A stretch of DNA of 17,017 bases from a virus (taxonomy: Duplodnaviria; Heunggongvirae; Uroviricota; Caudoviricetes). How positions within the stretch are numbered: position 1 is the stretch's first letter; each line of letters begins with the position of its first letter. The notes beneath the pieces are model-generated. The model ran no database searches. It had not been told where the DNA came from and worked only from the letters and a program-made list of their open reading frames with translations. Shown piece after piece: positions 1-17,017 of the stretch. Where the stretch lies: IMG/VR virus record IMGVR_UViG_2850802633_000008; one strand, written 5' to 3'. The position numbers were made by a program, and so were the translations under genes.

Positions 1-327
1 TCATTTTTTCCAGAGGCGGTCGAACTCCGCCTTCGCAAAATAAGCGGAAGCCTGGCGAAGGATATCGTTACTGCGGCGCAGTTCACGATTTTCACGCTCC
101 AGCTCTTTCAGACGCTGACGTTCAGCGGTGGTGAGCCCTCCATCACCGCCCCCGGTATCCCGCTCATGCTGGCGAACCCAGACACGCAGAGTCTCCGGCG
201 TACAGCCAATCTTTGGGGCAATGGAACAAATTGTCGCCCATTGTGAGTCATATTCGCCCTGACTTTCCAGAACCATACGGACTGCCCGTTGACGGACTTC
301 GGGGGAAAAACGAGTATTTTTAGTCAT
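1..327 (-). CDS. IS3-family transposase OrfA (IS629-like), 108 aa
   Basis: ORF track 1..327 (-), [23 protein letters not shown]...[34 protein letters not shown]. It has the helix-turn-helix plus leucine-zipper layout typical of IS3-family OrfA and matches my recollection of IS629 OrfA. ATG at 327..325, TGA at 3..1. Confidence 0.85.
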
Positions 328-381
328 CCTGTTTACCTCTTTCTCAGGAAGTTTAGTCTCCAGGATTCCCGGGGCGGTTCA
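1..381 (-). mobile_element. IS3-family insertion sequence (IS629/IS1203-like), left-end portion; element continues beyond the window start
   Basis: Complete orfA at 1-327 (-). The minus-strand sequence from 381 downward begins TGAACCGCCCCGGGAATCC..., a TG-initiated terminal repeat of the IS3-family type about 54 bp upstream of the orfA ATG. The exact terminus at 381 is placed from recalled IS629 end sequence, not an alignment. Confidence 0.7.
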
Positions 382-465
382 CGTTGGGTTTTTCTGCTCA
401 TTATTAGCTCCTTCTGATGCCATTCTATTTCAGGAAGGAGTGTCCGTTAAACTCAGGCTACCTCA
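382..465 (-). mobile_element. Remnant left end of a second IS3-family element (IS600-like), interrupted by the IS629-like insertion
   Basis: Minus strand reads TGAGGTAGCCTGAGTTTAACGGACACTCC...CAGAAGGAGCTAATA ATG AGC AGA AAA ACC CAA CG, which then runs straight into the IS629-like terminus. That is a strong RBS plus ATG (401..399) and seven codons (MSRKTQR), matching my recollection of the IS600 OrfA N-terminus. The outer boundary near 465 is inferred, not verified. Confidence 0.4.
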
Positions 466-2183
466 ACTCTCTTTTCAATAGGGTCAAGGTTTTTCATCCC
501 GCCAAGATCTTCTGCCACCTGTTTGAGCATTGACCTTGTTGATGGCGCATCAATTTTTGCACCTGCAGGCATCGCCTTTTCAACATTGCGATAAAGCTGG
601 TCGCTTCGTTTCATCAGCGCAGACATTCTTCCATTGACCGTATCAATAAACTTGTCGCTCATACCAAGAGCATCTTTTGCACCGGAAACGCGATCAATTA
701 TCTCACCCGCGCCCTGTGCTAGCTGCCTGATTGCTTCATTTTCCTGCACCTGTAGAGCAGAACCCGCACGGGACTTGATTGCTTGCTCAACTGCCTTGTA
801 TTGCTCGTTCCCGGAAAAGTGTGAAGGGAGTAATGAATCAACATTAAGCCTTTCAGCAGACTCCAGAACTTCAGCCTGAGGATTGATATCTAGTTCATCA
901 AGCGATGAAGCGAGATTTGGCCTTTTTTGTGCTGCTACTGTGCGAACGACTTCCTCTGGGTTCTTCGTCGCAGGCGTCATTGGTACACCTTGTGCTACTC
1001 TTGCCTCTGCGGCATGAACCGCAGGATTTGTTGCTGCAGCGGCATCACCGGAGAATGGTGATGTTTCTGTTGGCGCAGTGGTCGCTCTCTGTGCAGATGT
1101 TTTATTGCCACTAATTATATTTGATGCACCACGAACACCACGGGTAACGCCATTTATCAGGCCATGCGTAGCAATGCTAAGTCCGGCATTAATAGCGGCA
1201 TTTTCGGCAAAATCACCCCGTTGATTCGCCGCGTCAGCGAGAGAACCAATGACCATGTTTCCAGCTACACCTGCTCCAGGAACAAGATAACCGCCTATTG
1301 ACTCTCCAGCTTGCGCGTAGGGGTCTGTCGGTCTGTCTACTGGACGATAAACATCATCCAATACTTTTGGCCCCCCAAGCCCCTGACTGATTGCATTAAT
1401 CAGACTTGCGCCACCCTGCAATACGTCAAATGGTATGTTTACCAGACCACGACCAGCCTGTTCTGCAATTTGCCCTGCACTTTGACCACCAGTGAGCCAA
1501 TCGCCAGCTTGTTGCATCAATGATGGTTCTTCCCGTGTTGGTGCATTATTGGCCTGATTAACTGTTTGTTGCTGAACAGGTTTCGGTGCGACAGAACTTA
1601 CGGGTTGAGGTGGCTGCTGACTGGCTGCCTGCTGCTCAATCTGAGCAAATGGATTATTTGGGTCTGACTGCACACCTGATGCCGATACTTGTTCGGATGA
1701 CTGTACTTCCAGTTGTGCAAACGGGTTGTTAGGGGCTTGCTGAGGATGTACCTTTGCAGAGGTGGCGCGCTGTTCGACTGTTGAGTCTGTCACCGGGTCA
1801 CCAGCCCATTGAGCAAAGCGATCATCAACGTAACCGCGGCCTTCAGGTCCTGGCGTATATTCACCACGCTTTGCCTTCATAACGTTGCCGGGACCGTCGT
1901 GATAAGCCTGAAGAGCGTCACGCCAGTTACCAAACTGCTGGTACATCTTTGCCAGATAGCGCGCGCCAGCGTCAGCCTGATATTCGGGGTTTTGCATTTG
2001 CTCATCGGTATAACCCATATCACGCCATGTCCTAGGCATGACCTGAGTCAATCCTACAGCCCCGGCGGAGCTTACTGCGGCAGGGTTGTAAGAAGACTCC
2101 TTGGCACCCAGTGCAGTCATCAACCCTTCTGGCACACCGTAACGTGCGCCAGCCTGCTCTAACAAATCACGGTAATTAACCAT
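453..2183 (-). CDS. Internal virion (ejection) protein with N-terminal lytic transglycosylase (SLT) domain; occupies the P22 gene-16 position
   Basis: ORF track 453..2183 (-), 576 aa, ATG at 2183 directly after the TAA of the upstream gene. The N-terminus carries the family-1 lytic transglycosylase motifs: ...[25 protein letters not shown]... (E-S catalytic motif, GLxQ(V)MP) and ...[11 protein letters not shown]... (AYNAG-like). The rest is Q/A/P-rich low complexity, typical of ejection proteins. The last four codons and stop may lie inside the IS600-like end. Confidence 0.75.
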
Positions 2184-3515
2184 TTACTGCCCCAAAGATG
2201 GAAGATATCCGTAGCGATTAATGAAGTCGATTGACAGCTCGGGGTGCTGCTTCAGGTAATCTATAGAAGCCTGAGGCGCTTCCACTCGCTTGATACCGTT
2301 TTGCTGAACGTACTTACCAACCGCCTCATTACGCTTCTGGTTGAGCGTGTTCAGGATGACGCCAGCGTTGCGACGAAAGGACTCCTCGCTCTGCGAGTTC
2401 TGCAGCGAACCAACAGCCTAGTCGAGCTTTTTGCCCTCGGCATCAGAAAGTGCGCCCATGCCTCGCATGGCCTGAACCGCTGTCAGGTATGCTTGTGATT
2501 TAAAGGTATCAAGTCGTGCCTGAGTGTCTGCAGCCTGTGAGCCTGGAACGTTGGGGATTACTCCACGTAAGCCTGTAATGCTCTTAAGTGAAGGAGAACT
2601 AACGATATCGTTCAGAGTGAACATGCTGGTTGTGAGGGTGTTGATGCCGTCTTTGTAGCCATCATTTAGCGCTTGCTGCTTCTGCTGCAACTGCTGGTTG
2701 TTGGCTGCTATGCGGCTCTGTATTTCCTGGCGCTTCAGGTCGTTAGTTTCTGCTGATAGCATCCGGTCAAGGCGCTTATTTTCGTTGTTAATGCGGTTTG
2801 TTTCTGCGTCCAGATTAATGCGCTGCTGACCTAAATTCGCCTGGATATCTTGTCCGCGCATTGTGATTGCCTGATTCCGAGCGGCGGTTTGCGAATCCAG
2901 ATCCTGACCGCGCATGGTAACCTGGCGACCCTGCATTTTATCCTGTAGGTCAAAGTATTTTTCGGGCCCGAGACTGTTCATCCCCAGGTGATCGACAAAT
3001 TCGCCGAACTGCCGCGGGTTCTGTTGGTACATCTGAGCGACGTCATGAGGATTAACGCCAACACGAGCTAACTCACCGGCGTTGTTTTGCAGCCATGATT
3101 GCATTGCTTCTGGAGACGATGACGCAAGGCGTGCGCCAGCCGCTAAGGTGCCGATAGAATTACGCTGCTCTTCATCAATGAATCCCATGCCTTTACGAAC
3201 GGATTCAATCTGGTCTGGATATTGAGTAGCCAACTGACGCAAAGCACCGCGATCACCAGACGCATAAGCATTAGCGTACGCCTGCTGAAATTCTTTCTGC
3301 CGCTGAGCCTGCTTTTCCTGCTGAAAAACACCCGCAATACCTGAAAGACCTTGCAAAGCAGTCAGCCCAACATTGTTAGCGCCTGAACGCTCAATATCAT
3401 TGTTCTGCCTGATAAGCTGAAGCGTATTGCCGATGTCATTTACGCTCGGAGCGTTTGAGTTGACGCCGCCGATACCAGCCAACAATCCGCCGTTTGTTCC
3501 TTGCCAAGTAGCCAT
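2184..3515 (-). pseudogene. gp20-like ejection protein interrupted by an in-frame TAG (2418-2420)
   Basis: ORF track 2418..3515 (-) gives 365 aa (MATWQGTNGG...AEGKKLD) ending at TAG. The same frame stays open for 78 more codons (AVGSLQNSQSEESFRRNAGVILNTLNQKRNEAVGKYVQQNGIKRVEAPQASIDYLKQHPELSIDFINRYGYLPSLGQ) and ends at TAA 2184-2186, immediately before the ATG of the next gene. Gene order matches the P22 7-20-16 ejection-protein block. Confidence 0.65.
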
Positions 3516-3524
3516 GATTACCCC

Positions 3525-4217
3525 TTAAAACAACGAGCCAAGCAATCCGATACCAGCACCAATACCAGCGCCCCAAGGCGTTGATGTTCCCAAAAGGCTG
3601 GCAAGACCTGCACCGGCAATCGCACCAGACGTGCCACCGCTAATTGCAGTCTGAAGACTTGATGGTTTATTGGCATTAGCAGCGGCAAGAGCTGCGCTTT
3701 GCTGTGCAATGCTGCTCATGTTGTTGGCGTACGTCTGCCCGGCGTTTGCCTGACCTTGCAGCGCACCAAGCCCAACGTTTGCCAGATTGTTGTAATTGCT
3801 CATCTGATTTGATAACCAAGACTGACCGAGTGTCGGCGCGATCGTAGCCAGTTGATTGCTTGTGGCTGTCGAACCAAGTCCACCCGTCGCCTCCGCAGCA
3901 GCAAGACTCTGGTAACGCGCCTGCCCTGCAAGGTCTTTATACTGCTTAGAGTTGTAATACTGATTAAGTGCCTGCCCCTGACCTTCTAAACTGGAAAGGT
4001 TCTGAAGCTGGTTAACATACTGCTCCGCAAGAGGCGTGAACGGAGCAAGGTTTTTCATGATCGTCTGCCACTGCTGATTTTGCAGGTCTGCAGCATACTT
4101 CTGGGCTTCTGCTGCATACTTTGCGCTTTTATCAGAACTGCCACCTTTCCCGCCTTTTTCAGGGCAATAAGGTTCCTCGCCGCGCAGTTTTCTGCCCAGC
4201 TTAAATGCATATAACAT
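3525..4217 (-). CDS. gp7-like ejection (internal virion) protein
   Basis: ORF track 3525..4259 (-). The likely true start is the ATG at 4217..4215 (MLYAFKLGRKL...), preceded by GGGAGA with a 5-nt spacer and lying 2 nt after the TAG of the upstream gene. About 230 aa, Q/A/N/G-rich with a Gly-rich hydrophobic C-terminus; size and position match P22 gp7. Confidence 0.7.
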   Translation of the reverse strand: MLYAFKLGRKLRGEEPYCPEKGGKGGSSDKSAKYAAEAQKYAADLQNQQWQTIMKNLAPFTPLAEQYVNQLQNLSSLEGQGQALNQYYNSKQYKDLAGQARYQSLAAAEATGGLGSTATSNQLATIAPTLGQSWLSNQMSNYNNLANVGLGALQGQANAGQTYANNMSSIAQQSAALAAANANKPSSLQTAISGGTSGAIAGAGLASLLGTSTPWGAGIGAGIGLLGSLF

Positions 4218-4219
4218 GG

Positions 4220-4675
4220 CTATCTCCCGTGATTCAGGAAGTCGATTAGTTCTTCGCATGTGCCGCTGTAAAAAGTCACGTCATCCACGCCTTTGAAGTA
4301 TTTCTTGATGGTTCCTACACGCTTAAGGCCAATCATTGCGCAGTACATCTGACCGTGTCGGAATTTGCGTGCAGCGAACGATGTTACGCACTGAACGGTG
4401 GTGTTAGTCAGAATGTATCGCCAGAACGCCAGCCCAATTTCCTTGCTGAAGCCGCGAATCTCTGGCAGGTACATGGCGTGGCAATCTAATGTCAGCGGCT
4501 GAATCTCCTGATAGTAAACAATGCCGCCAAACTGACCGTGCACGTTCACCTCAAAGTAACGGCATTCAGGTTTGTAGTCGTATCCATCACCGTTGTTGCT
4601 CCCGGCGATAATGTCAGGGTGATTTCCGACTGCTTCTATCAGGTCGATGTTTCGCGTTGGTTTGAATGTAATCAT
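4220..4675 (-). CDS. gp14-like virion assembly protein (position-conserved, function uncertain)
   Basis: ORF track 4220..4678 (-). The first track codon is GTG; the ATG at 4675..4673 overlaps the tail-needle TGA (TGATG). About 151 aa. Assignment is by position between the tail-needle and gp7-like genes, as in P22. Confidence 0.55.
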   Translation of the reverse strand: MITFKPTRNIDLIEAVGNHPDIIAGSNNGDGYDYKPECRYFEVNVHGQFGGIVYYQEIQPLTLDCHAMYLPEIRGFSKEIGLAFWRYILTNTTVQCVTSFAARKFRHGQMYCAMIGLKRVGTIKKYFKGVDDVTFYSGTCEELIDFLNHGR

Positions 4676-5523
4676 CACTGCTCCGCGATTATCTTGATGG
4701 TTGTGGCAGTAAACGCCGCACCATTCGACTGAATGGTTAACGTACTGCCATTTGTGGCAAGAAAGCCGTCTTTATCCACGCTGAAGAACGTAGCTAACAG
4801 GATGTTGTCGGTTGTTGTCGCCGCATTACGACTGCTGACCAGTGTGTCAGGAACAGAGCCGGAAAAGGTTAGCTGCATTGACCTGTTGGCGGTTCCGCTG
4901 GGCCACGTGCCGACAATCGACAACTTGAAGAGCAGGGTTTTGTTCTCGTTGAACACAACCATCTTGTTGTTAACGGTGTCGAAGAATGGTGCCAACGAGC
5001 CGGATGACGGTGTGAGCGTTTTCAGCAGGCTAACAAGGTTGGTCGGCGCTGTCGGGATGGTTACAGATACACCAGAGTAAACAACCTCTGACTTCTTGCG
5101 TGTGGTTGCATACTCCAGAGCATCGATGCGCGTTTCATGGTCTGAAACCTGCGACTCCAGCGACTGAACTCTTGTGTCAAGCGACGAAATATCGCTTTCA
5201 TTCTGAGCTATTCGTGTTTCATGGTCCTGAAGAGTTGATTCTGCCTGTCTGATTCGCTCCTCATGATTAACAAGCGTTGCTTCCGCAGCAGAAATTCGCT
5301 GCTCATGGTCAGCGAGAATCACATCCTGCTCATCGTTCCTGACCTGTGCATCATAAGCGCCCTGTCCGGCCTCGTTGGCTTTGTTAGCCACGTTACCAAC
5401 ATCAGTGCCCTGTGCGATAACGTAAAGCAGATACGACTGCGAGAAGATATTGCGTGGAAGGACTGATGTATCGAGCCGCGTAGCTTGGATGATTACCGGC
5501 ACATTGAGATTCGAATCAGCCAT
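4675..5523 (-). CDS. Tail needle protein (gp26-like N-terminus with coiled-coil repeats and a distinct C-terminal knob-type domain)
   Basis: ORF track 4675..5523 (-), 282 aa. N-terminus [43 protein letters not shown]... resembles the P22 gp26 N-terminus as I recall it. It is followed by repeated DHExRI heptad-like units and a Ser/Thr-rich C-terminal domain unlike the P22 gp26 C-terminus. Its ATG overlaps the gp10 stop (TAATG). Confidence 0.85.
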
Positions 5524-6941
5524 TACTCAATCCTTATCTGAGCGCCAGACAGAGTGACAGGTGACTTCGTGATAACGCGCAATTTGAAGCCGACATTTTT
5601 CCTGATGCGCCCTACTCGCTTCCACAAAACACGCTTGTCGTAAACGAACGGTTCATTCTGCTCAATCATCTGCTCACGCCCGTAATTGATGCAGTCAGTG
5701 GTTGCAGAGAGAAAAAGGCGGTCGGCGTACTGCGCAACGCCAGTTGACGATTCAACCTCAAGGTCGAACACTCTGGCGTTATCCGCTTTGAAGAGTGGAG
5801 TAAACAGCAGGTGTTCCTGTTGCTTGTCGTACTGGCTGCTGATATCGAATTGCAGTTTCCCGGTAACAGATTCCAGCTTATCGCCGCACGTTATCTGATT
5901 GCCTTCGTAAACGAAGTCGATAGCGCGGTACACATCGTCATACAGACCTGTTTTCAGCACACACCATTGTGGGCCATTGGCGCTTGAAGATGCGTCGTAC
6001 ACGAGGACGTGACGCGGAAGGTGGATAATCAGCAACTCATGAGCATCAAATCGCAGCGATTCCATCACACCATCAGCCAGTTCATCAGCAGTGTAGGAGC
6101 GGAGGATTTTCTCAATGCTCGCGCTGACAATTGGTGACACCTGACCGGAGTCGATGATATACACAGACGGCGCACCCGTTGCCGGATTGCTGATAAACGC
6201 ATACGAATCAGCGAATGGCGTTTTGCAGTAAGTTCCGGCAATGCCTTTCTGCACCATCAGCGATGGTTGTGCAACATACAAAGCGGCACCAACGGTGGTT
6301 GCGCCAGTCAGGGAGAAATATTCAATAGTCGATGAACCAAAGCAGACGATGAAGTCTCGCCATGTCCCGATACCGATGATGCCGTCAGGCTGAGACTCGG
6401 CACGATATTGTGCGCTGTAACGGTCAGGATGAGATTCGTCTTCAAGGTCAGTGATAAACCATGAATCAGTTCCGTCTTTTGACCACGCATAACGCCCACG
6501 TAAGCGCGTAATGTCGCGAACTGAACCTAACTCATACTGAGTGAATCCACTGTCTGTAGGCCAGTTTGAGACGGTTTTGACCGTGCCATCATAGCGATAC
6601 TCGACCAGTTGACCATTAACGCCTACCGCCTGTGATGTCCGACCATGCGCCATTGATACACGACCACTTCCGGCAACATCACCGACTTCACTTTCTCCTT
6701 TGTACAGCTTGCCGCCACACACGCGATAAACAGCATTCTGCGCCATGTTGTACTCGACGCCGCGAGATACACCGTTCACGTCAGAACGTTTGGCAATGCC
6801 CGGGAATGAGCGAAGATATCCGCTGCTGTTCAGGATTTCTTTGGGTGTAGCCAGCATATTCACTGGCAGATAGTCGATATAGTCGGCGTTTCGGAAGTCT
6901 TTGCCGACACCTTTCATAAGCGGAAGTTGCTGAATAGGCAT
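5523..6941 (-). CDS. gp10-like head completion / tail hub protein
   Basis: ORF track 5523..6941 (-), 472 aa, the same length as P22 gp10; sits between the gp4-like and tail-needle genes. The start overlaps the gp4 stop (TAATG). Confidence 0.85.
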
Positions 6942-7441
6942 TATTCGCTCCCGTTATCGCAAGGTTCCTTTCGGTGGAAGTAATTCCAACCATTCCACTT
7001 CGCCAACTGGTTACCACTACCAACAGGCATACGGTTTGGATAACCGGACTTACATTTAGCTGCTTTTGCCCTGTCCATTGCAGACAGTTTGACGAGTCGC
7101 TCTTTCCCGTATCTGGCAGTGGCTATAAGTTTTGCAGACGCTTCCAGCGCATAATCTGGAGCAATTCGGCAGGCAAGGTTGAAAATGACGGCATTGATAG
7201 CGTTATTTGATAAACCGTGCTCATCGCCCGGATCCGGAGCAACATCTGCATCAGCAAAAATGTAGCCAACGTTGATACCAGGTGACGCATCACCGCCAAG
7301 CCATTCAGCCATCATCATTTCAAGGTCGTTGACGCCGTCTTCCATAGACTGCGGTTCGACATCGGTTAACGTGGCATTTGATGCAACACCGAGCTTACGT
7401 AATGCCGCAAGAACTAAATCACCCTTCGTTGTCAGGTTCAT
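6941..7441 (-). CDS. gp4-like head completion / portal-binding tail adaptor protein
   Basis: ORF track 6941..7510 (-). The start is chosen at the internal ATG 7441..7439 ([21 protein letters not shown]...[10 protein letters not shown]...) because it aligns with the recalled P22 gp4 N-terminus ([21 protein letters not shown]). This gives 166 aa, with AAGG 10 nt upstream. Confidence 0.8.
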
Positions 7442-7649
7442 CTGCTGCCGCCTTAGGTTTTCGACCAGGCTTTTTACGCTGTTTTTCTTCTGGCTCTGGC
7501 TCTGCAACATCCTTCAAAAGGTCATCAGGATGTGAAAACCAGCCAGCATCCAGATATTCCTGAAGCTCTTCGGCTTTCACGATTTCAAAGTCGTAGCCAA
7601 CGCCTTTCCACTTCTTCATGTCGCCATGACGAAAGATCATGTGTGTCAT
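7419..7649 (-). CDS. Small hypothetical protein between coat and gp4-like genes (about 76 aa, highly charged C-terminal tail)
   Basis: ORF track 7419..7697 (-). The first 16 track codons overlap the coat terminator hairpin. The ATG at 7649..7647 has GGAGA 5 nt upstream (CTGGAGACAAGCATG). Sequence [38 protein letters not shown]...[27 protein letters not shown]; its 3' end overlaps the gp4 start by 23 nt. Confidence 0.45.
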
Positions 7650-7661
7650 GCTTGTCTCCAG

Positions 7662-7685
7662 ATAAAAACGGGAGCCGAAGCTCCC
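7662..7685 (-). terminator. Candidate intrinsic terminator immediately downstream of the coat gene
   Basis: Minus-strand RNA GGGAGC-UUCG-GCUCCC (6-bp GC-rich stem, UUCG tetraloop, 7670-7685) followed by GUUUUUAUC (7661-7669). It lies 9 nt after the coat stop and just before the RBS of the small ORF. Confidence 0.5.
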
Positions 7686-7693
7686 TCTGGTTA

Positions 7694-8989
7694 TCACGCG
7701 GTCTGGTTAGGCAGACCAACACCAATTGCCTCTGGTCGTACAGCACATGCTGAATACCACACAGCAATACGGCACTTACCAGACAGAGTGTTGATATCAC
7801 CCTGCGTTGCGAAGATGCCGTTAACACCAATACCTGGAATGCTGAAGGAAGACGTTTTCATGCCAGCAAACAGTTCATGGGTTACCGGGATCGGCTGAGA
7901 CAGCAGGCGGATTGAGTCATCAGCCCAGAACACGTTAGCGGTGGTTGTTGCCACGTTCAGAACGTTTACCGGAGTGGTATCAGCAAGAGAGGTGTTTACG
8001 TTAGCGTAAGCCTTCTCTTCTTTTGTCAGTGACGCGTCATCCAGCGCAATCGGCTTCGGCGTGATTTCGATGTGAGTACCATCGATCACACGGGTGATTG
8101 AGAAAGTCGCGTCATCAGTCAGCACATTCTTCGCCATCTGAGACAGGAACTTCACACCAATGAAGCTGATTTTGTCGCCGCGCTTAAATCCGGTGGTGGA
8201 GGATACGGTCACCGTTGCAACACGGTTGTCGACGTTCTCTTTGTTACCATCGGTATCAAGGGTGTATGCCTGCGGCTTAAACTTCTGCGCACCAGAAACA
8301 GTTACACCAGTCGCGGTTGACTTGGTAACTGCCGGAAGTTTCGGTGAGCGAAGAATTTCATCAAAGCCAGCAATCTGACGCTGAATAGTACCGTTTCGAT
8401 ATGCTTCTTCAGGAACGCGCCCGAAGATGTCACCATCTACCAGGTTGCGGCCTGCTTTGCGGTAATCGTCAGGGTTCAGGAAGTAACTGATGCCCATGTC
8501 GCGGTTTAGCTCACGGGAGAACATCAGTCGCTCTGCATCAGACACAAAATCCCAGCCAGGCAGGCCAGTCGATGGACCAATTGCGCGGGTATCGTGAACA
8601 ACAAGCGAGCCCATTTCAGTTGCCTGTTTGGCAATCGCTGACTCAATGTTATTCGCCAGTTTTTTGGCGGATGCCTGGATGCGGCGACGGTAAGAACGCT
8701 CATCACGCAGGTCATCTGCACGAAGCTCGAAGAAATCGTTATCCGGATCGCCCATGTTGCACTTCACGGAGAGTTCCAGAATCCCGGTTGCGTTGCCAGT
8801 TAAATCCCAGCCAGTCTGGGTTGGCGCTTCCTGCTCAACAGGCATCCACACGGTGTTGCTTGAACGCTGCATGGATTCTGCCGGAGGGGGGTATTTTGTC
8901 ACTTTTGACGCCATTGGCGTCAGGTTCTGGACGGTTCCGATGATTTCATCCAGAGCATACGTGACCAGTTGACCTTCATTTAATGCCAT
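7694..8989 (-). CDS. Major capsid (coat) protein, P22 gp5-like
   Basis: ORF track 7694..8989 (-), 431 aa. [20 protein letters not shown]...[39 protein letters not shown]...[34 protein letters not shown]... matches the recalled P22 coat protein across its length. The start overlaps the scaffold stop (TAATG). Confidence 0.92.
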
Positions 8990-9900
8990 TATCGAATTCC
9001 TTTATTCAGTTGCGCCTTGAGCTTGCGGTACGTCTCTACATCCCCTTTGTTTGCTGCCGCCTCCATCTGCTTTTCAATCGCAGAGATATTTGCAGCAACA
9101 GCATGTCCCTGAATGGGTTCATCAGGTAACGGGGCTTCTGAAACAGGCTTGGCTCGAGGCTTGAGAGTTAAACGTTCTGACAGTCGAGTGAGTTCAATCA
9201 GCGCGGATTGCCCGTCCATCGCCAGCAACTGGCGTGTTTTCTCAGGATTAGCACCAAGGTGATACATGAGAGCGGCGGATTTCTCCGGGAAGAGGCGCAT
9301 GATGTCGGCACCGACTGCTGGCGGCACCAGTTGCATGAATGCATCCTCTTTCTCCTGATAGTCAGGGATATTGAGCTTTTCCGCTGCCTCGTAGTGCTTA
9401 CGGGCCGCCTCGACGTATTGCGCTGATTGCTGGGTGAACTCCTGAGTTTTGCGACCCTGCTCGGCGACAGCCTGGCTTCGTGCGTCCATAGCCTTGATCT
9501 GCCATTCACTGTTTGCCTGCTGGAAGGCAGCCAGTGCGCGGCTCTGGTCATAGTCGTACTTAGCCAGTGCATCTTCGGAAAGATAATCGTTAGGGTCTGG
9601 TTGTTTTGGTAACTCAGGGTTCACCCGCAGGTGCTCCGGCAACTCTCCACGCTTAACCGCTTCCATCTGCTGCTCAAGCTCACGCTGGCGTTTGCGTTCG
9701 ATGCGGCGACGGGCAAATTCAGCATTAGTTGCCGGGTCTTGTTTTGGTTTCTCATCGTCTTTCAGGACAATCTCAAAGCCTTCTTCCTGACCTGCGCTGT
9801 CGTTGGCATTATCGACAACTAAGCCATCAGCAGATGCCGCTGCATGATTGCCGGGCAGGGTTAATTCTTCAGAAGCCTGAATGTCGGTGGTTTGGTCCAT
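8989..9900 (-). CDS. Scaffolding protein, P22 gp8-like
   Basis: ORF track 8989..9900 (-), 303 aa, the same length as P22 gp8. Recalled conserved stretches: ...[14 protein letters not shown]...[31 protein letters not shown]...[42 protein letters not shown]...[11 protein letters not shown]. Confidence 0.9.
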
Positions 9901-9913
9901 GATTAACTCTCTC

Positions 9914-12079
9914 TTATTGAGGTGTCTCGGCTACTCCGCCGGAGGGGATTTGAACTTGACGCATAAGATTCGCGAAATCCATGCGTTGTGAATGAGTCTG
10001 GTCTGCATCTTTAAGAAGCAGCTCAGCGTTAGCACGAGCATCTTTGCTGCGCTGTTGCTGGAATTGACCTACGAGCCTGAGGTACTCACGCAGTTCTGCC
10101 TGCTTGTCGAGGTCCATATTGTTGAATATTTCTGCAATCTTCGCGGCGTTGAGTTGGTTTTGGGCTTCAACCTTGGCAGCTTCAACCTGAATCTGCGCCT
10201 GTTGGTTCTCTGCCTTGAGCAATTCAGCCTGACCTTGCAGAAGGATACCCTGCGCCTGAATTTGCTCTGCTGATGGCTGCTGCGGCTGTTGTTGTGCCTG
10301 CTGCACCATCTCCATCTCTTCAGGTGTTTCTGGTTTCTTCAGCCCCATCATCACCAGTTGCTTGTTCGCGTACTCTCGCATCATCTCGACGCCTTTACCG
10401 TCAAGCAGCGTGAAGTATTGCAGCATCAGCATCTGGAACTCTGGAGTACCTTGCGGAACCTTGGTGAGCAACTCCTGAATCTCTGCGCGGTTCTGTTCCT
10501 TCATACTCTGGAAGGATGGCCCAACGTCTGTATAGCACTCATATCGACCGCGAATGTCGTTGAGTGTGACCACATTGCCGGACTGGTAATCGACAACTTG
10601 CGCATAGAGTTGAACGTCTTTCTCGCTTCCATCTTCAAGTGTCAGCGTTACATGACGAGGAACGTCATAAATATCGTTGACCATTGAGGCATAAATCTCG
10701 CCATCACGTCGCATTGCGGTAGCCAGGTTATCCTGAAACACGTATGTCTCAAGGTCTGCCCGCATGTTCAGTTGATTGACGGTATCAAAAGCGACCTGAC
10801 CATTTGCCGCCTGCGCATCCACGCCAAGACTAGCCACTTCTTTCACTGCGTTGGTGGCAGCCTCAAGCATGTAAGCGTTGGCTTGCGGCACTTCAGGGTT
10901 TTCCATGTAGGAGATTGGACCAATCGGCAGGTCGTTACCGTTTTCATCGGTCCTGTTCTGCAGATAGTACGGATAGTCATCATTTCCGCCGTACATGTAT
11001 TCGTAGCCTTCGATTTGCTCAGGGAAGAAGGTCGGTTTCTTCTTCGGTGACCGAGCAACAATATCGGCGTTGAACGACATAATCATGTTACGAAGGCGTT
11101 GACCGTCTTTCGTCAGCCTTACCACACCCTCGTAGCACTCCTTGTCACCAGCGAATGACCATTCGCCATACACTGGAACGATTGGAATATGCTCTCCGGC
11201 TATCTTCTCGCGGTCTTTCAGTATCTGCGTACAGGTGATGATCGACTTATACACACGCCGACGCTTCACCTTGCGCTCTGCTACCTTAATGAATCCACGA
11301 TTAGCCAGGTCGTCGATGACGTCTTTGATATCCTGCTGGTAATAGCTGACCGGCTCACCTGTCAGCGGGTCGCGGTAGATGAAGACCTTCTCCTTCTCCT
11401 CTTCTACCTCGTAATACTCAGCGACGTAGACGACATCATTCGACACCCACGGGAATAGCCATGTATCGTTAGGATTCTGGAAAGATGGCAGGGTATCCGG
11501 GTCAATACCGTAATCCTCTGCGAACTCTTTCCAGCCATTGCGCGACAAGGCGTTAATCACCGTGCAGTGCTTAGCGTCGCTCTTATCCATCTGCTTGCTG
11601 TTGGCGTCTCATATGACGTGTGAGCAGGCTTCATGGATTGGCAGGCGTCGGATTACCTGATTGTTGCTTGTTGGATCGTTGTCTTCGTACTGCGTGACCA
11701 GACGCCATGCACCAACGCCTGACTCTATCTGCTCACGAACGCCAACGTTAACGGCAATCTTTGCCGTGTTATGGCGCATATCAGTACGATACATCCCCAT
11801 CAATACATCGGCTGCATCAGGATTAGCGCCGTCTTTGGGTCGGAAGAGAACGTCGACAGGGTTCCGGCGCATCTCTGCGACCAGTTTCCTGACCCCCGGG
11901 CGAACAACATCGAATTGTCCGCGATATTGCAGGGTAGTGTAGTTTGATAGCCAGTCATCCCATTGCGACACTCGGCTAAAATACAGGTCATTTGTCGCCT
12001 CGGTTCTGGCTTCATCGCTCGCCATCCAGTCTGCGTCAAACTTACACAGAATGGAATTGAGTCTGTTTTCGTCGGCCAT
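9914..12079 (-). pseudogene. Portal protein (P22 gp1-like) interrupted by an in-frame TGA at 11609-11611
   Basis: ORF track 11609..12079 (-, 156 aa, [43 protein letters not shown]...HEACSHVI) and 9914..11590 (-, 558 aa, [11 protein letters not shown]...VAETPQ) are in one frame. The gap reads [21 protein letters not shown]. The recalled P22 portal has Trp at that position (HVIWDSNSK), so this is TGG->TGA. Combined length is about 721 aa. Confidence 0.85.
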
Positions 12080-13120
12080 TTAAGTTCTCCGTGCGATGGG
12101 CCTGATTGGGGCTGGTATCTTTTTCTCTTTTGGTTTTTTGATGTCGCGCATCATTTTTGCGAAGCGGCGCATCATGTATGCATAGCGAACGGCGGATAGC
12201 ACGTCGTCGTTAAGCTTGACGATTTTCCCGTTTTCATCACGGTGATAGAGGCGGAACTCCTCAAAGAATGGCTCACAGGTATTGAATACTTTGAAGCGAC
12301 CATCGAGCATCATGTCGCGCAATTCAGTGATGCCTGGCTCAACAGCGTTACCGCCATCAGGCCATGTCGCATGCTCCTGCAACATCATAAATCCAGCGTC
12401 TGCATACTGCCCTTTGAGCTGCTCACCGCCGCCCTTCTCGTGCTGGTTTCCATCATGAGGCCATGCGGTTGGCACTTTATGCGCCCATGATTTAACGGCT
12501 CCCCACGCCTGAACGGCTGTTTTTTCTTTCGCCTTCCACACGCGTGAAACGTAGATTGTGTCTGCCTCCTTATCCCACCAAAGCTGAACTTGCGCCTGTG
12601 GGTGATCCCATCCGAAATCCATCCCGCCAATTACGTAGAAGTGATCAGGACACTCGAACGGCTGACACTTAATCGTCTCTTCCGGTATCTGGAAGATTCG
12701 ACCACTACCCATCGTAGGAATACCGCGAGCACGCGCCTCTCTCTCATGCTCGGGATATGATGCGATGATTTGCTCTTTCTGCTCGTCGGTATAGTGCTCA
12801 GCGTCATAGATGGTCATGTTGACCACTTTCTGCGACTTGCTGGGGTTCTTCAGGAACTTGGTAACAACGTCAGACATCCCCATCAGCGGGGTAAACGTCA
12901 GAATTGAGAATTGCCCGTATTTGTTGGTACGGGTAAGACCTTCGCCATAAATGCTGTATGGTGGCTCTTCGTCAAACCACACGCCGTGGATTGTGTCACC
13001 CTGCCAGCGAGCACGGCCTTGCGAGTATGGCTTGAAGTAGCAGATTGAAATGCCATCTTCAACGCCATCAGCCGTGTGATGCTTAACCAGAAGGTGATCA
13101 ACAAGGTTCGGAAAGAAAGG
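12080..13120 (-). pseudogene. Large terminase subunit, 5'-truncated by the IS911 insertion (C-terminal about 346 codons retained)
   Basis: ORF track 12080..12982 (-) starts at an internal GTG. The frame is open upstream with no start codon back to the IS911 end at 13121 and on into the IS to a TGA at 13166-13168. The retained part is the C-terminal nuclease-type region (...VIGGMDFGWDHP...LNDDVLSAVRYAYMMRR...). No Walker-A ATPase N-terminus and no small-terminase gene are present. The stop abuts the portal ATG. Confidence 0.8.
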
Positions 13121-13192
13121 TGAAGTGGCACACTGAATTTGGCCACCTGAACAGAGGTGATATGCTCACCTCAGAACAACACAGGTGCTCCA

Positions 13193-14361
<1,169 letters not shown>

Positions 14362-14369
14362 CCACTTCA

Positions 14370-14762
14370 ATATGGACCATCTGTCGTGGTGCCACAATGG
14401 TGGATGGTAAGCCCGTCATACCGGGAATGAAGCTGTCGAAGGAAAAATGCGACCAGGTTAACGCTATTGAACGTGATAAGGCGCTGGCATGGGTGGAGCG
14501 CAATATTAAAGTACCACTGACCGAACCACAGAAAGCGGGTATAGCGTCATTTTGTCCCTATAACATTGGCCCAGGTAAGTGTTTCCCGTCGACGTTTTAT
14601 AAGCGGCTGAATGCCGGTGATCGTAAGGGCGCATGCGAGGCGATTCGCTGGTGGATAAAAGATGGTGGGCGCGATTGCCGCATACGTTCAAATAACTGCT
14701 ATGGACAGGTTATTCGTCGTGACCAGGAAAGCGCATTAGCCTGTTGGGGGATAGATCAGTGA
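14370..14762 (+). pseudogene. Phage lysozyme (endolysin, lambdoid R21/T4-lysozyme-like family), 5'-truncated by IS911
   Basis: ORF track 14355..14762 (+) starts at a TTG inside the IS911 right repeat. The native sequence begins at 14370 (IWTICRGATMVDGKPVIPGMKLSKEKCDQVNAIERDKALAWVERNIKVPLTEPQKAGIASFCPYNIGPGKCFPSTFYKRLNAGDRKGACEAIRWWIKDGGRDCRIRSNNCYGQVIRRDQESALACWGIDQ). The N-terminal roughly 45-50 residues, including the expected catalytic Glu, are missing. Confidence 0.8.
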
Positions 14763-15226
14763 GCTGAGTCGCCGCGATTATTTATGCTCTGGTTATCTGC
14801 ATCATCGTCTGCCTGTCGTGGGCGGTCAATCATTACCGTGATAACGCCATCGCCTACAAAGAACAGCGTGATAAAAAAGTCAGTGAGCTGAAGCTGGCGA
14901 CCGCCACCATTACTGACATGCAGCAACGCCAGCGTGCTGCTGATGTACTCGATGCTAAATACACGAAGGAGTTGGCTGATGCGAAAGCTGAAAATGATGC
15001 TCTTCGGCGCAAGCTTGATAATGGTGGCCGGGTGCTCGTCAAAGGAAAATGCTCTGTGCCATCCTCAGCCGAAACCTCCAGCGCCTCCGGCATGGGCAAT
15101 GATGCCACCGTCGAACTCTCTCCAGTTGCTGGACGAAACGTTCTCGGTATCCGGGACGGAATCATCAGAGACCAGACAGCACTGAGAACGCTTCAGGAAT
15201 ATATCAGGACGCAATGCCTTCGATGA
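14759..15226 (+). pseudogene. Rz: Rz i-spanin (lambda Rz-like) with TGA at codon 3
   Basis: GTG AGC TGA at 14759-14767 overlaps the lysozyme stop. The same frame then encodes the expected N-terminal transmembrane segment ([31 protein letters not shown]...) and continues into ORF track 14918..15226 (...[34 protein letters not shown]...[10 protein letters not shown]). Lambda Rz begins ATG AGC AGA GTC ACC GCG ATT ATC as I recall, so the Arg codon is replaced by a stop. There is no in-frame ATG/GTG/TTG between the TGA and 14918. Confidence 0.7.
14979..15185 (+). CDS. Rz1: Rz1 o-spanin (outer-membrane lipoprotein), embedded in the +1 frame of Rz
   Basis: ATG at 14979 with AAGGAG 8 nt upstream. 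[44 protein letters not shown]... carries a lipobox (VAGC) and a proline-rich periplasmic segment, and lies wholly inside Rz. The track ORF 14934..15185 starts 15 codons upstream. Confidence 0.8.
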
Positions 15227-15400
15227 TAGAGATAATTTTACTCATCATCCTTCACATCTGGCTCTGTAGACAGGGTGGTGATCACTTCTGGAGGGAATCC
15301 AGATTAAACATCTCATTGCTGATGCTTAAAGTTGAGCATTTGGCGCGCGGTAAGGGGCTGCGTTTAGATAAGAGCCAGTCATCACAAACACCAGGATTTA

Positions 15401-15426
15401 GCCTCGCATTCGCGGGGCTTTTTATT
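15401..15426 (+). terminator. Candidate intrinsic terminator downstream of Rz/Rz1
   Basis: GCCUCGC-AUUC-GCGGGGC (7-bp stem with one G-U pair, 15401-15418) followed by UUUUUAUU (15419-15426). It ends only 18 nt before the ATG of the next gene. Confidence 0.4.
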
Positions 15427-15444
15427 GCAACAAAGGTAAAGACG

Positions 15445-15732
15445 ATGGATGAAGAATATCGTAAAGACCTGCAACTGTGGTTTGGTCTTACGCATGCGTC
15501 GTTCTGCGTGATGCCGCGAGTATTCATGGAGGCTATGCCTCCAGAATGGCAAGAGAAGATGGCTCAGTTGCTTTTTGAGTATAGCGACACGATCAAAACG
15601 GATGTCTGCGGAGTTCACAGCTGTTTTGTTACTGCCAAAGACGGCAACAACCGCTTTATGAGGATGCCAGAAGATATTCTGAACTATCGTCATCCTCGAC
15701 GTGAATTCATCGAATCATTTCTGAAGAAGTAG
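15445..15732 (+). CDS. Hypothetical protein (95 aa), possible moron downstream of the lysis cassette
   Basis: ATG at 15445 with AAAGG 8-9 nt upstream; TAG at 15730-15732. MDEEYRKDLQLWFGLTHASFCVMPRVFMEAMPPEWQEKMAQLLFEYSDTIKTDVCGVHSCFVTAKDGNNRFMRMPEDILNYRHPRREFIESFLKK. I do not recognise a family. The 77 codons upstream in the track ORF 15214..15732 are treated as non-coding read-through. Confidence 0.5.
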   Translation: MDEEYRKDLQLWFGLTHASFCVMPRVFMEAMPPEWQEKMAQLLFEYSDTIKTDVCGVHSCFVTAKDGNNRFMRMPEDILNYRHPRREFIESFLKK

Positions 15733-15788
15733 CCATTACAAAGCCTATCTACGGGTGGGTTTGATAATGGCTTATACTGGATTTGCCC

Positions 15789-16694
15789 CTATATTTCCAG
15801 ACATCTGTTATCACTTAACCCATTACAAGCCCGCTGCCGCAGATATTCCCGTGGCGAGCGATAACCCAGCGCACTATGCGGATGCCATTCGTTATAATGC
15901 TCGAACGCCTCTGCAAGGTTCTTTGCTGCCGTTAACCCGTCTGGTTTGGGCATGATACTGATGTAGTCACGCTTTATCGTTTTCACGAAGCTCTCTGCTA
16001 TTCCGTTACTCTCCGGACTCCGCACCGCCGTGTTCTTCGGTTCAAGTCCCAACATCCGGGCGAACTGGCGTGTTTCATTAGCCCGGTAGCATGAACCATT
16101 ATCCGTCAGCTACTCCACTGGAGACGACGGAAGATCGTTGCCGAAGCGGCGTTCCACCGCTCCCAGCATGACATCCTGTACTGTTTCACTGTTGAAGCCG
16201 CCGGTAGTCACCGCCCAGTGCAGTGCCTCACGATCACAGCAATCCAGCGCGAACGTGACACGCAGTCTCTCTCCGTTATCACAGCAGAACTCGAACCCGT
16301 CAGAGCACCATCGCTGATTGCTTTCTTTCACGGCCACTCTGCCTGTATGTGCCCGTTTCGATGGCGGTACAGCAGGTTTTCGCTCAAGCAACAGCGCATT
16401 CTGGCGCATGAGCCGGTAAACACGTTTGGCATTGATCGCAGGCATACCATCAAGTTCTGCCTGTCTGCGAAGCAGCGCCCATACCCGACGATAACCATAC
16501 GTGGGCAGCTCTCCGATAACATGGTGTATACGGAGAAGCACATCCGTATCATCAGTGTGACGACTGCGGCGGCCATCCATCCAGTCATCGGTTCGTCTGA
16601 GAATGACGTGCAACTGCGCACGCGACACCCGGAGACAACGGCTGACTAAGCTTACTCCCCATCCCCGGGCAATAAGGGCGCGTGCGCTATCCAC
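15789..16694 (-). pseudogene. insD: IS2 transposase InsD (OrfB) interrupted by an in-frame TAG at 16110-16112
   Basis: ORF track 16110..16694 (-, ...[11 protein letters not shown] then stop) and 15789..16055 (-, [11 protein letters not shown]...) are in one frame. Translating the gap gives [33 protein letters not shown]. The recalled IS2 InsD reads [14 protein letters not shown], so this is TGG->TAG. Confidence 0.85.
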
Positions 16695-17017
16695 TTTTTT
16701 GCCCGTCCATATTCAACGGCTTCTTTGAGGAGTTCATTTTCCATCGTTTTCTTGCCGAGCAGGCGCTGGAGTTCTTTAATCTGCTTCATGGCGGCAGCAA
16801 GTTCAGAGGCAGGAACAACCTGTTCTCCGGCGGCCACAGCAGTAAGACTTCCTTCCTGGTATTGCTTACGCCAGAGAAATAACTGGCTGGCTGCTACACC
16901 ATGTTGCCGGGCAACGAGGGAGACCGTCATCCCCGGTTCAAAGCTCTGCTGAACAATTGCGATCTTTTCCTGTGTGGTACGCCGTCTGCGTTTCTCCGGC
17001 CCTAAGACATCAATCAT
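16652..17017 (-). CDS. insC: IS2 InsC (OrfA), 121 aa
   Basis: ORF track 16652..17017 (-), [61 protein letters not shown]...[41 protein letters not shown]. Matches the recalled IS2 InsC. Confidence 0.92.
16694..16700 (-). promoter_or_regulatory. IS2 programmed -1 frameshift heptamer A-AAA-AAG in the insC/insD overlap
   Basis: Plus strand CTTTTTT at 16694-16700 is AAAAAAG on the minus strand, in register with the insC frame (A-AAA-AAG). The insD frame is the -1 frame relative to insC. Confidence 0.7.

Follow-up and report, generated by a model that had tools for sequence, protein, structure and literature searches.

The subject of this report is the 17,017-nucleotide IMG/VR record IMGVR_UViG_2850802633_000008 (the whole stretch is called the window below), in which the genes of a phage portal protein, of a gp20-like DNA ejection protein, of the i-spanin Rz and of InsD of the insertion sequence (IS) IS2 are each interrupted by one in-frame stop codon. 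The window very probably carries a defective remnant of a P22-like prophage residing in the chromosome of Shigella flexneri, and the four stops are then point mutations of the ordinary, spontaneous kind in sequence that selection has ceased to maintain. Neither suppression nor read-through nor mutagenesis is indicated by them, and none of them would be decoded.

The chromosome of S. flexneri 93-3063 (CP026768.1, serotype Y) is 100% identical to the window over positions 5214–17017, the stretch that was fetched, whereas that of strain 61-4982 (CP026792.1, serotype 4b; strain data from the table in PMC9455713) differs from it at 7 of 17,017 positions. The locus is flanked by genes of a type VI secretion system (T6SS) and by psiF/phoA, and an exact look-up of the coat protein found it in the same place in many NCBI genomes. 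No record among complete E. coli genomes covered at least 80% of the window. Most open reading frames (ORFs) between positions 453 and 13120 lie on the minus strand and form a P22-like structural module, in the order terL (large terminase), portal, scaffold, coat, gp4, gp10, tail needle, gp14-like, gp7-like, gp20-like and gp16-like. Both this gene order and the P22-specific families matched along it (Pfam P22_portal, Phage-scaffold, P22_CoatProtein, P22_Tail-4, Phage_stabilise, Phage_tail_NK, P22_gp7, Inj_translocase and Phage_P22_gp16, in that order) assign the module to the Lederbergvirus type. Over its 12.6 kb it shares 97.2% identity with a prophage of E. coli F1005 and 96.8% with the Lederbergvirus phage APC_JM3.2; no net frameshift separates it from the former, the alignment containing one intergenic 1-bp indel and compensating gaps. 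E. coli prophage and phage relatives (loci L001 and L002) were used as outgroups. Within S. flexneri, lineage A includes the window, strain 61-4982, CP026765, two NCTC assemblies and KN150717, and lineage B comprises seven genomes with intact portal and gp20-like genes (loci L003–L006, L009, L011 and L012).

Four stop codons of different age

The portal gene (721 codons, minus strand, 9914–12079) is interrupted at codon 157 by TGA, the reverse complement of positions 11609–11611, where a C>T change on the plus strand at 11609 converted TGG into TGA. The protein is called as two pieces of 156 and 558 amino acids in lineage A and is intact, with 721 amino acids, in lineage B. In the gp20-like gene (443 codons, minus strand, 2184–3515) codon 366 is TAG (2418–2420), derived from CAG by a G>A change on the plus strand at 2420; the full protein of 443 amino acids is present in all seven lineage-B genomes as well as in the E. 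coli and phage relatives. Rz, located on the plus strand at 14759–15226 and starting with GTG, carries TGA at codon 3 (14765–14767), an A>T change of AGA at position 14765, and its three closest homologues, from phages PhiR47_1 and mEp460 and from E. coli E10, all begin GTG AGC AGA GTC. The fourth stop, TAG at codon 195 (16110–16112) of the 301-codon insD (minus strand, 15789–16694), results from a change of TGG at 16111 and is linked to two synonymous changes at 16173 and 16242. In all four genes the frame downstream of the stop is open to the normal gene end.

The positions of the stops (codon 157 of 721 in portal, 366 of 443 in the gp20-like gene, 3 in Rz and 195 of 301 in insD) and the openness of the frames beyond them are thus as the earlier note had described them from the letters of the window. 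Alignment to intact close homologues, which that note had proposed as a check, established that each stop is derived, the ancestral codons being TGG, CAG, AGA and TGG in portal, gp20-like, Rz and insD, respectively. The note further stated that a G:C>A:T transition could account for all four events; this is wrong for Rz, where the change is an A:T>T:A transversion. Programmed read-through or recoding was also considered, and was rejected: the stop codons are restricted to particular lineages and are not conserved, with sense codons at the same positions in relatives and sister lineages.

The explanation by sequencing or assembly error, or by chemical mutagenesis of one laboratory strain, is scarcely credible. 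Three of the four changes do belong to the G:C>A:T class that alkylating agents and deamination produce, but the same class also dominates among the spontaneous substitutions at this locus (21 of the 39 counted in situ, as described below, next to 8 of the G:C>T:A class, which is the usual AT-biased spectrum), and the change in Rz is a transversion. Moreover, the same stop alleles are found in CP026768, CP026792, CP026765, the two NCTC assemblies, KN150717 and assemblies derived from the Sequence Read Archive (SRA). In particular, the portal and gp20 stops recur in many independent SRA-derived assemblies and in no fewer than five from NCBI that are likewise independent, and therefore they are not sequencing errors. 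Their truncated products are represented in the index by 165 blocks for the 156-residue N-terminal piece of the portal and by 137 blocks for the 365-residue gp20-like product, compared with 3278 blocks for the coat protein.

The four stops differ in age. The TGA of Rz is found in every S. flexneri locus that keeps the lysis segment, including L012 of lineage B and a copy with a 177-amino-acid lysozyme; being common to all S. flexneri copies examined, it is the oldest of the four. The portal and gp20 stops are confined to lineage A and account for two of the eight substitutions that define it. The TAG of insD is found in only a part of lineage A, and locus L010 has both phage stops yet an intact insD of 301 amino acids. 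Judged from this distribution of alleles, the four stops arose on at least three branches. At a rate of about one substitution per century per 12.6 kb, the eight substitutions of the stem that carries the portal and gp20 stops would correspond to about a millennium or less, a time short enough to explain the lack, so far, of additional lesions beyond the stops.

Insertion sequence damage and loss of constraint

Damage of another kind preceded two of the stops. Only the 3' part of terL is left in the window (minus strand, 12080–13120; Pfam Terminase_6N/6C): its homology to the 1500-bp terL of the two outgroups stops at 13120, the 5' third of the gene having been removed by IS911, and the junction at 13120/13121 is the same in S. 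flexneri lineages A and B. At the other end of the module, the gene of the gp16-like ejection protein, which contains an SLT lytic transglycosylase domain (minus strand, 453–2183; Pfam SLT and Phage_P22_gp16), is truncated at its 3' end by an IS at 465/466. Of the 911 codons present in phage APC_JM3.2, 576 are left, and the C terminus of the encoded protein departs from the outgroups exactly at 466, where homology to the phage relatives ends. This junction, too, is common to both lineages. Since the terL and gp16 junctions are common to both lineages, the loss of the 5' part of terL, and with it of the N-terminal region of the terminase, is older than the portal and gp20 stops, and the prophage was dead before these two stops arose.

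Part of a lambdoid lysis cassette lies inverted at 14370–15438; it comprises the 3' part of the lysozyme gene, Rz and Rz1. The R-type lysozyme gene (plus strand, 14370–14762) has lost its 5' end to IS911; it encodes 177 amino acids when intact, as in the relatives, and such a copy is kept in locus L027. No tailspike gene follows the gp16-like gene within the window, which therefore lacks an intact terminase, an adjacent tailspike and a correctly oriented lysis segment, all of them parts of a complete inducible P22-like genome. The description of the interrupted genes as otherwise intact holds for those four genes themselves, although not for their setting, in which terL, the lysozyme gene and the gp16-like gene are cut by IS elements and the lysis segment is inverted. 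As for the spanins, the o-spanin gene Rz1 embedded in Rz (14979–15185) is still open, encoding 68 amino acids with a lipobox-like VAGC, despite the stop in Rz and the truncation of the lysozyme gene, and an NCBI-derived call starts Rz, as a protein of 149 amino acids, from a non-canonical ATT at 14777.

The IS911 that separates terL from the lysis segment is complete (1249 bp aligned, plus strand, 13121–14369), with orfA at 13193–13495 and orfB in the −1 frame extending to 14361 (NCBIfam transpos_IS3), and pINV plasmids of S. flexneri carry elements with the IS911 annotation that match it at 100% identity. At the terL junction IS911 is found in opposite orientations in the two S. flexneri lineages (window, positions 13121–15438; L012, positions 1–5800; L004, positions 4600–5900), and in L012 two inverted copies bracket a full lysis cassette consisting of a holin, a DUF1327 protein, the 177-amino-acid lysozyme and Rz. 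In view of these two arrangements, the layout of 13121–15438 in the window looks like the product of an IS911-mediated inversion and deletion. The opposite end of the window is occupied by an IS3-family element at about 1–381 (minus strand, NCBIfam transpos_IS3), with an orfA of 108 amino acids at 1–327, and by the terminal ~80 bp of another member of this family, at about 384–465 (minus strand); the stretch matches, in two pieces, sequence annotated as IS3 family transposase. These are nested insertions: the end of the second element abuts the gp16-like gene and is interrupted at about 382 by the first. From the appearance of their ends, the element with orfA would be IS629/IS1203-like and the other one IS600-like.

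The history of constraint on the module was followed in two ways. The earlier note had proposed a comparison of the ratio of non-synonymous to synonymous substitution rates (dN/dS, ω) on both sides of each stop. Against the E. coli and phage relatives ω is 0.03–0.07 in the portal gene, both before and after the stop, and in the part of the gp20-like gene that precedes its stop. These values reflect ancestral purifying selection and show that the downstream frames are genuine coding sequence that was once under constraint; in the last 77 codons of the gp20-like gene, which follow its stop, there are 0–1 differences, too few for ω to be estimated. Because the stops are too young for dN/dS at 97% identity to reveal decay, this comparison was replaced by a count of the substitutions that arose in situ, in 22 distinct S. 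flexneri loci and with a block of SNPs at 10127–10676 in locus L007, a recombinant or duplicated segment of portal, left out. The count yielded 39 substitutions, of which 28 are missense, 5 nonsense and 6 synonymous, where a neutral model with the observed spectrum expects 26.1, 2.1 and 10.8, respectively. With 33 non-synonymous changes (nonsense included) to 6 synonymous ones, purifying selection is relaxed, and constraint is gone across the whole module in both lineages.

Other disabling lesions are scattered over strains and branches. A 1-bp deletion is present in the coat gene at 8891 in CP026765 and another one in terL at 12842 in KN150717, whereas SRA-derived assemblies contain single-base indels in gp10, portal and gp4 and, in one of them, a 6-bp in-frame deletion in portal. 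Additional nonsense mutations are found in sister strains at 2843 (gp20-like), 5834 (gp10) and 8017 (coat). The total of five frameshifts, one in-frame deletion and three extra nonsense mutations includes some private variants from automatic SRA assemblies that are possibly erroneous. The absence of frameshifts that the earlier note reported is correct for this strain, although not for its sister strains, and the window's two phage nonsense mutations with zero frameshifts are a small-number outcome.

It would be very improbable indeed that suppressor tRNAs or leaky stops allow the full-length proteins to be made, as in laboratory amber mutants. All four downstream frames are open, and TGA can be misread as tryptophan at a low level, two of the stops replacing Trp codons. 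The likeness to amber or opal derivatives of P22 and lambda kept on suppressor hosts consists in single nonsense codons within open essential genes (portal, ejection protein and Rz). However, the stops include two TGA and two TAG codons, which one suppressor could not read, so that two suppressors would be needed; they differ in age; and they are present in many natural isolates instead of one laboratory stock. No tRNA gene, and hence no suppressor, was found within the window. Full-length products would be useless in any case, since terL, the lysozyme gene and the gp16-like gene are physically truncated by IS elements and the lysis segment is inverted, leaving an element that is not otherwise viable and not rescuable by suppression, and within S. 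flexneri there is no constraint downstream of the stops or elsewhere in the module. The earlier note's option of a lineage that was mutagenised, or of amber mutants maintained on a suppressor host, is in conflict with the same mixture of stop types and ages, the many isolates, the truncated genes and the usual AT-biased spectrum.

A selective advantage of losing the portal and ejection proteins, conferred if residual structural or lytic expression is costly, is decidedly unlikely to account for the stops, even though the counts of nonsense mutations are somewhat in its favour. On the stem of lineage A two of the eight substitutions are nonsense (P 0.046–0.066) and none is synonymous, over all strains nonsense changes make up 5 of the 39, where 2.1 are expected (P 0.057), and three more independent nonsense mutations affect gp20, gp10 and coat in sister strains. 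Nevertheless, the window was chosen for its stops, and a fair test leaves two of them out; with these two ascertained stops removed, 3 of 37 substitutions are nonsense against 2.0 expected (P 0.32). The pattern is thus not clearly above chance, and the significance that the earlier note implied for it is not upheld. In addition, the ORFs have stayed open in about 95% of the assemblies indexed (3278 blocks, compared with 165), with no sign of a cost; the lesions affect a variety of genes, which is what random decay would produce; and unverified SRA assemblies are the source of several of the additional events.

The IS2 allele and the order of events

The IS2 at the right end of the window (minus strand, 15778–17017, 1240 of its 1331 bp) comprises insC (16652–17017) and insD. 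In NCBIfam the former matches IS2 TnpA with 276 bits, and the IS2 TnpB match covers residues 1–194 of the 301 of InsD. The element conforms to IS2 of the IS3 family, in which insC occupies the 0 frame and insD the −1 frame, and where related loci hold it in full it measures 1331 bp and is flanked by 5-bp duplications. The copy in the window does not encode a full-length OrfAB and is not autonomous, the TAG at codon 195 truncating the rve (DDE) domain. Sequences of insC are present in 80,750 index blocks, and the places returned are unrelated genomes.

IS2 copies that encode the truncated InsD product occupy eight different sites on the chromosome, in several genomes of S. flexneri (loci L016–L025). 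These copies have 0–2 differences from the IS2 of the window, five of them are flanked by perfect 5-bp target duplications, and together they form an allele series, from TAG alone to TAG with 16173A and on to the form that also has 16242A. At the IS2 site of the window itself strains vary, with the intact allele or with TAG and one or both of the additional changes, and the TGG codon is found in eight IS2 copies of the loci, all at this T6SS-adjacent site in other strains. The window differs from L010 at four positions in 630 bp of IS2 (the TAG and three more), compared with about six differences over the ~16 kb outside it. The occurrence of the TAG allele at eight sites and this clustering of differences indicate a circulating IS2 allele instead of an independent hit at this site, and most probably the allele reached the IS2 of the window by gene conversion from another copy.

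Defective IS copies can spread by trans-mobilisation or gene conversion. The presence of the allele at eight sites, with five perfect duplications and stepwise sub-variants, resembles such cases, unlike the allele at the window site, which was replaced in place; the occurrence of the TAG at several sites suggests that a defective IS has been mobilised in trans, that concerted gene conversion has taken place, or that both have happened. An unlikely, more novel reading would be that the nonsense-bearing IS2 constitutes a non-autonomous subfamily that is spreading in one S. flexneri lineage by means of a transposase supplied in trans or of concerted gene conversion. As a weaker variant of this case for novelty, the slight excess of nonsense mutations in the prophage may reflect selection that silences the structural genes of the remnant.

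Taken as a remnant that decays by spontaneous mutation, the locus would have acquired its lesions in three steps. Before the sampled lineages split, IS911 would have taken the 5' part of terL, another IS would have cut the gp16-like gene, and codon 3 of Rz would have changed from AGA to TGA. The branch leading to the lineage of 93-3063 and 61-4982 would then have gained eight substitutions in the module, two of which created the gp20 and portal stops, and the IS2 beside the T6SS genes would have gained the TAG-bearing insD allele. That the downstream frames are still open would be due solely to the shortness of the time available for further lesions. Very recent prophage decay, one of the options in the earlier note, is the one that agrees with the data: the stops are derived and arose on at least three branches, constraint within S. 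flexneri is relaxed, and the 5' part of terL was lost before the portal and gp20 stops came about.

Some considerations weigh against this reading. The marginal excess of nonsense mutations and the deficit of synonymous ones (P about 0.05–0.06 each) could hint at selection for inactivation. The direction of the IS2 transfer may have been the opposite one, the allele having arisen here and transposed out. Finally, suppression is set aside by argument, the tRNA scan having covered the window.

Remaining features and relation to known systems

The other genes of the module are all open and are located on the minus strand. They comprise the gp7-like (3525–4217) and gp14-like (4220–4675) genes, tail needle (4675–5523), gp10 (5523–6941), gp4 (6941–7441), coat (7694–8989) and scaffold (8989–9900), all identified by Pfam and by the annotation of the relatives (L001 and L002), as well as an ORF of 76 amino acids at 7419–7649. 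A further ORF, of 172 amino acids (plus strand, 15214–15732), spans a break in homology at about 15438 and contains a rare single-nucleotide polymorphism (SNP), T>G at 15294; among complete genomes only CP026768.1 has this ORF, which is represented by 4 index blocks. It has no NCBIfam match and no Pfam match on record. Situated between the lysis fragment and the IS2-flanking sequence, it is probably chimeric and non-genic.

Several observations concern variation within S. flexneri. In most S. flexneri assemblies (lineage B) the remaining structural ORFs of the terminase-less remnant are full length, and the lineage-B stem includes four missense and zero synonymous substitutions, which fits a very young remnant rather than domestication. 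The synonymous site 10949 in portal is homoplasic, with G in the window, L010, L007 and the outgroups, and A in 61-4982 and all of lineage B, a pattern that could be due to recurrent mutation or to a small recombination tract. In KN150717.1 (L007/L041) the region equivalent to 9624–13241 of the window is a second, inverted partial terL-portal copy. The same sequence contains a block of ten SNPs in the 3' half of portal (9571–10676), six of which match both outgroups, two match one outgroup and two are private; together these features indicate that the region was duplicated or rearranged, or that it recombined with a second P22-like sequence.

Cryptic prophages are well known in E. coli, where DLP12, Rac and Qin are examples. 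The element described here is similar to them as a fixed remnant with truncated modules, broken lysis genes and relaxed selection, although it is much younger, most of its structural ORFs being full length and the remnant being 97% identical to viable Lederbergvirus phages such as APC_JM3.2. Pseudogenisation and IS-driven decay are also described in earlier S. flexneri genome papers. In kind the phenomenon is already known, as Shigella genome decay acting on a young cryptic P22-like prophage. S. flexneri accumulates pseudogenes via IS insertion, nonsense mutations and frameshifts (PMC7373316), and the decay described by Hawkey et al. (2020, PMC7373316) is of the same kind as that of the window: lesions caused by IS elements, nonsense mutations and frameshifts are partly fixed in lineages and partly strain-specific, and IS2, IS911 and other IS3-family elements are expanded. 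Phage regions were excluded from the phylogenies of that study, and this locus may therefore not have been described individually.

The significance of these results extends little beyond annotation, in which the split ORFs should be entered as lineage-specific pseudogenes of a dead prophage rather than as sequencing errors or recoded genes. Within S. flexneri the stops of portal and gp20 can serve as lineage markers, and the nonsense allele of IS2, found at several sites, is a minor lead on the persistence and spread of defective IS copies. The contrast between an ω of about 0.05 in the phage ancestry and of about 1 or more in situ provides a small example of how quickly constraint is lost once a prophage has been immobilised.

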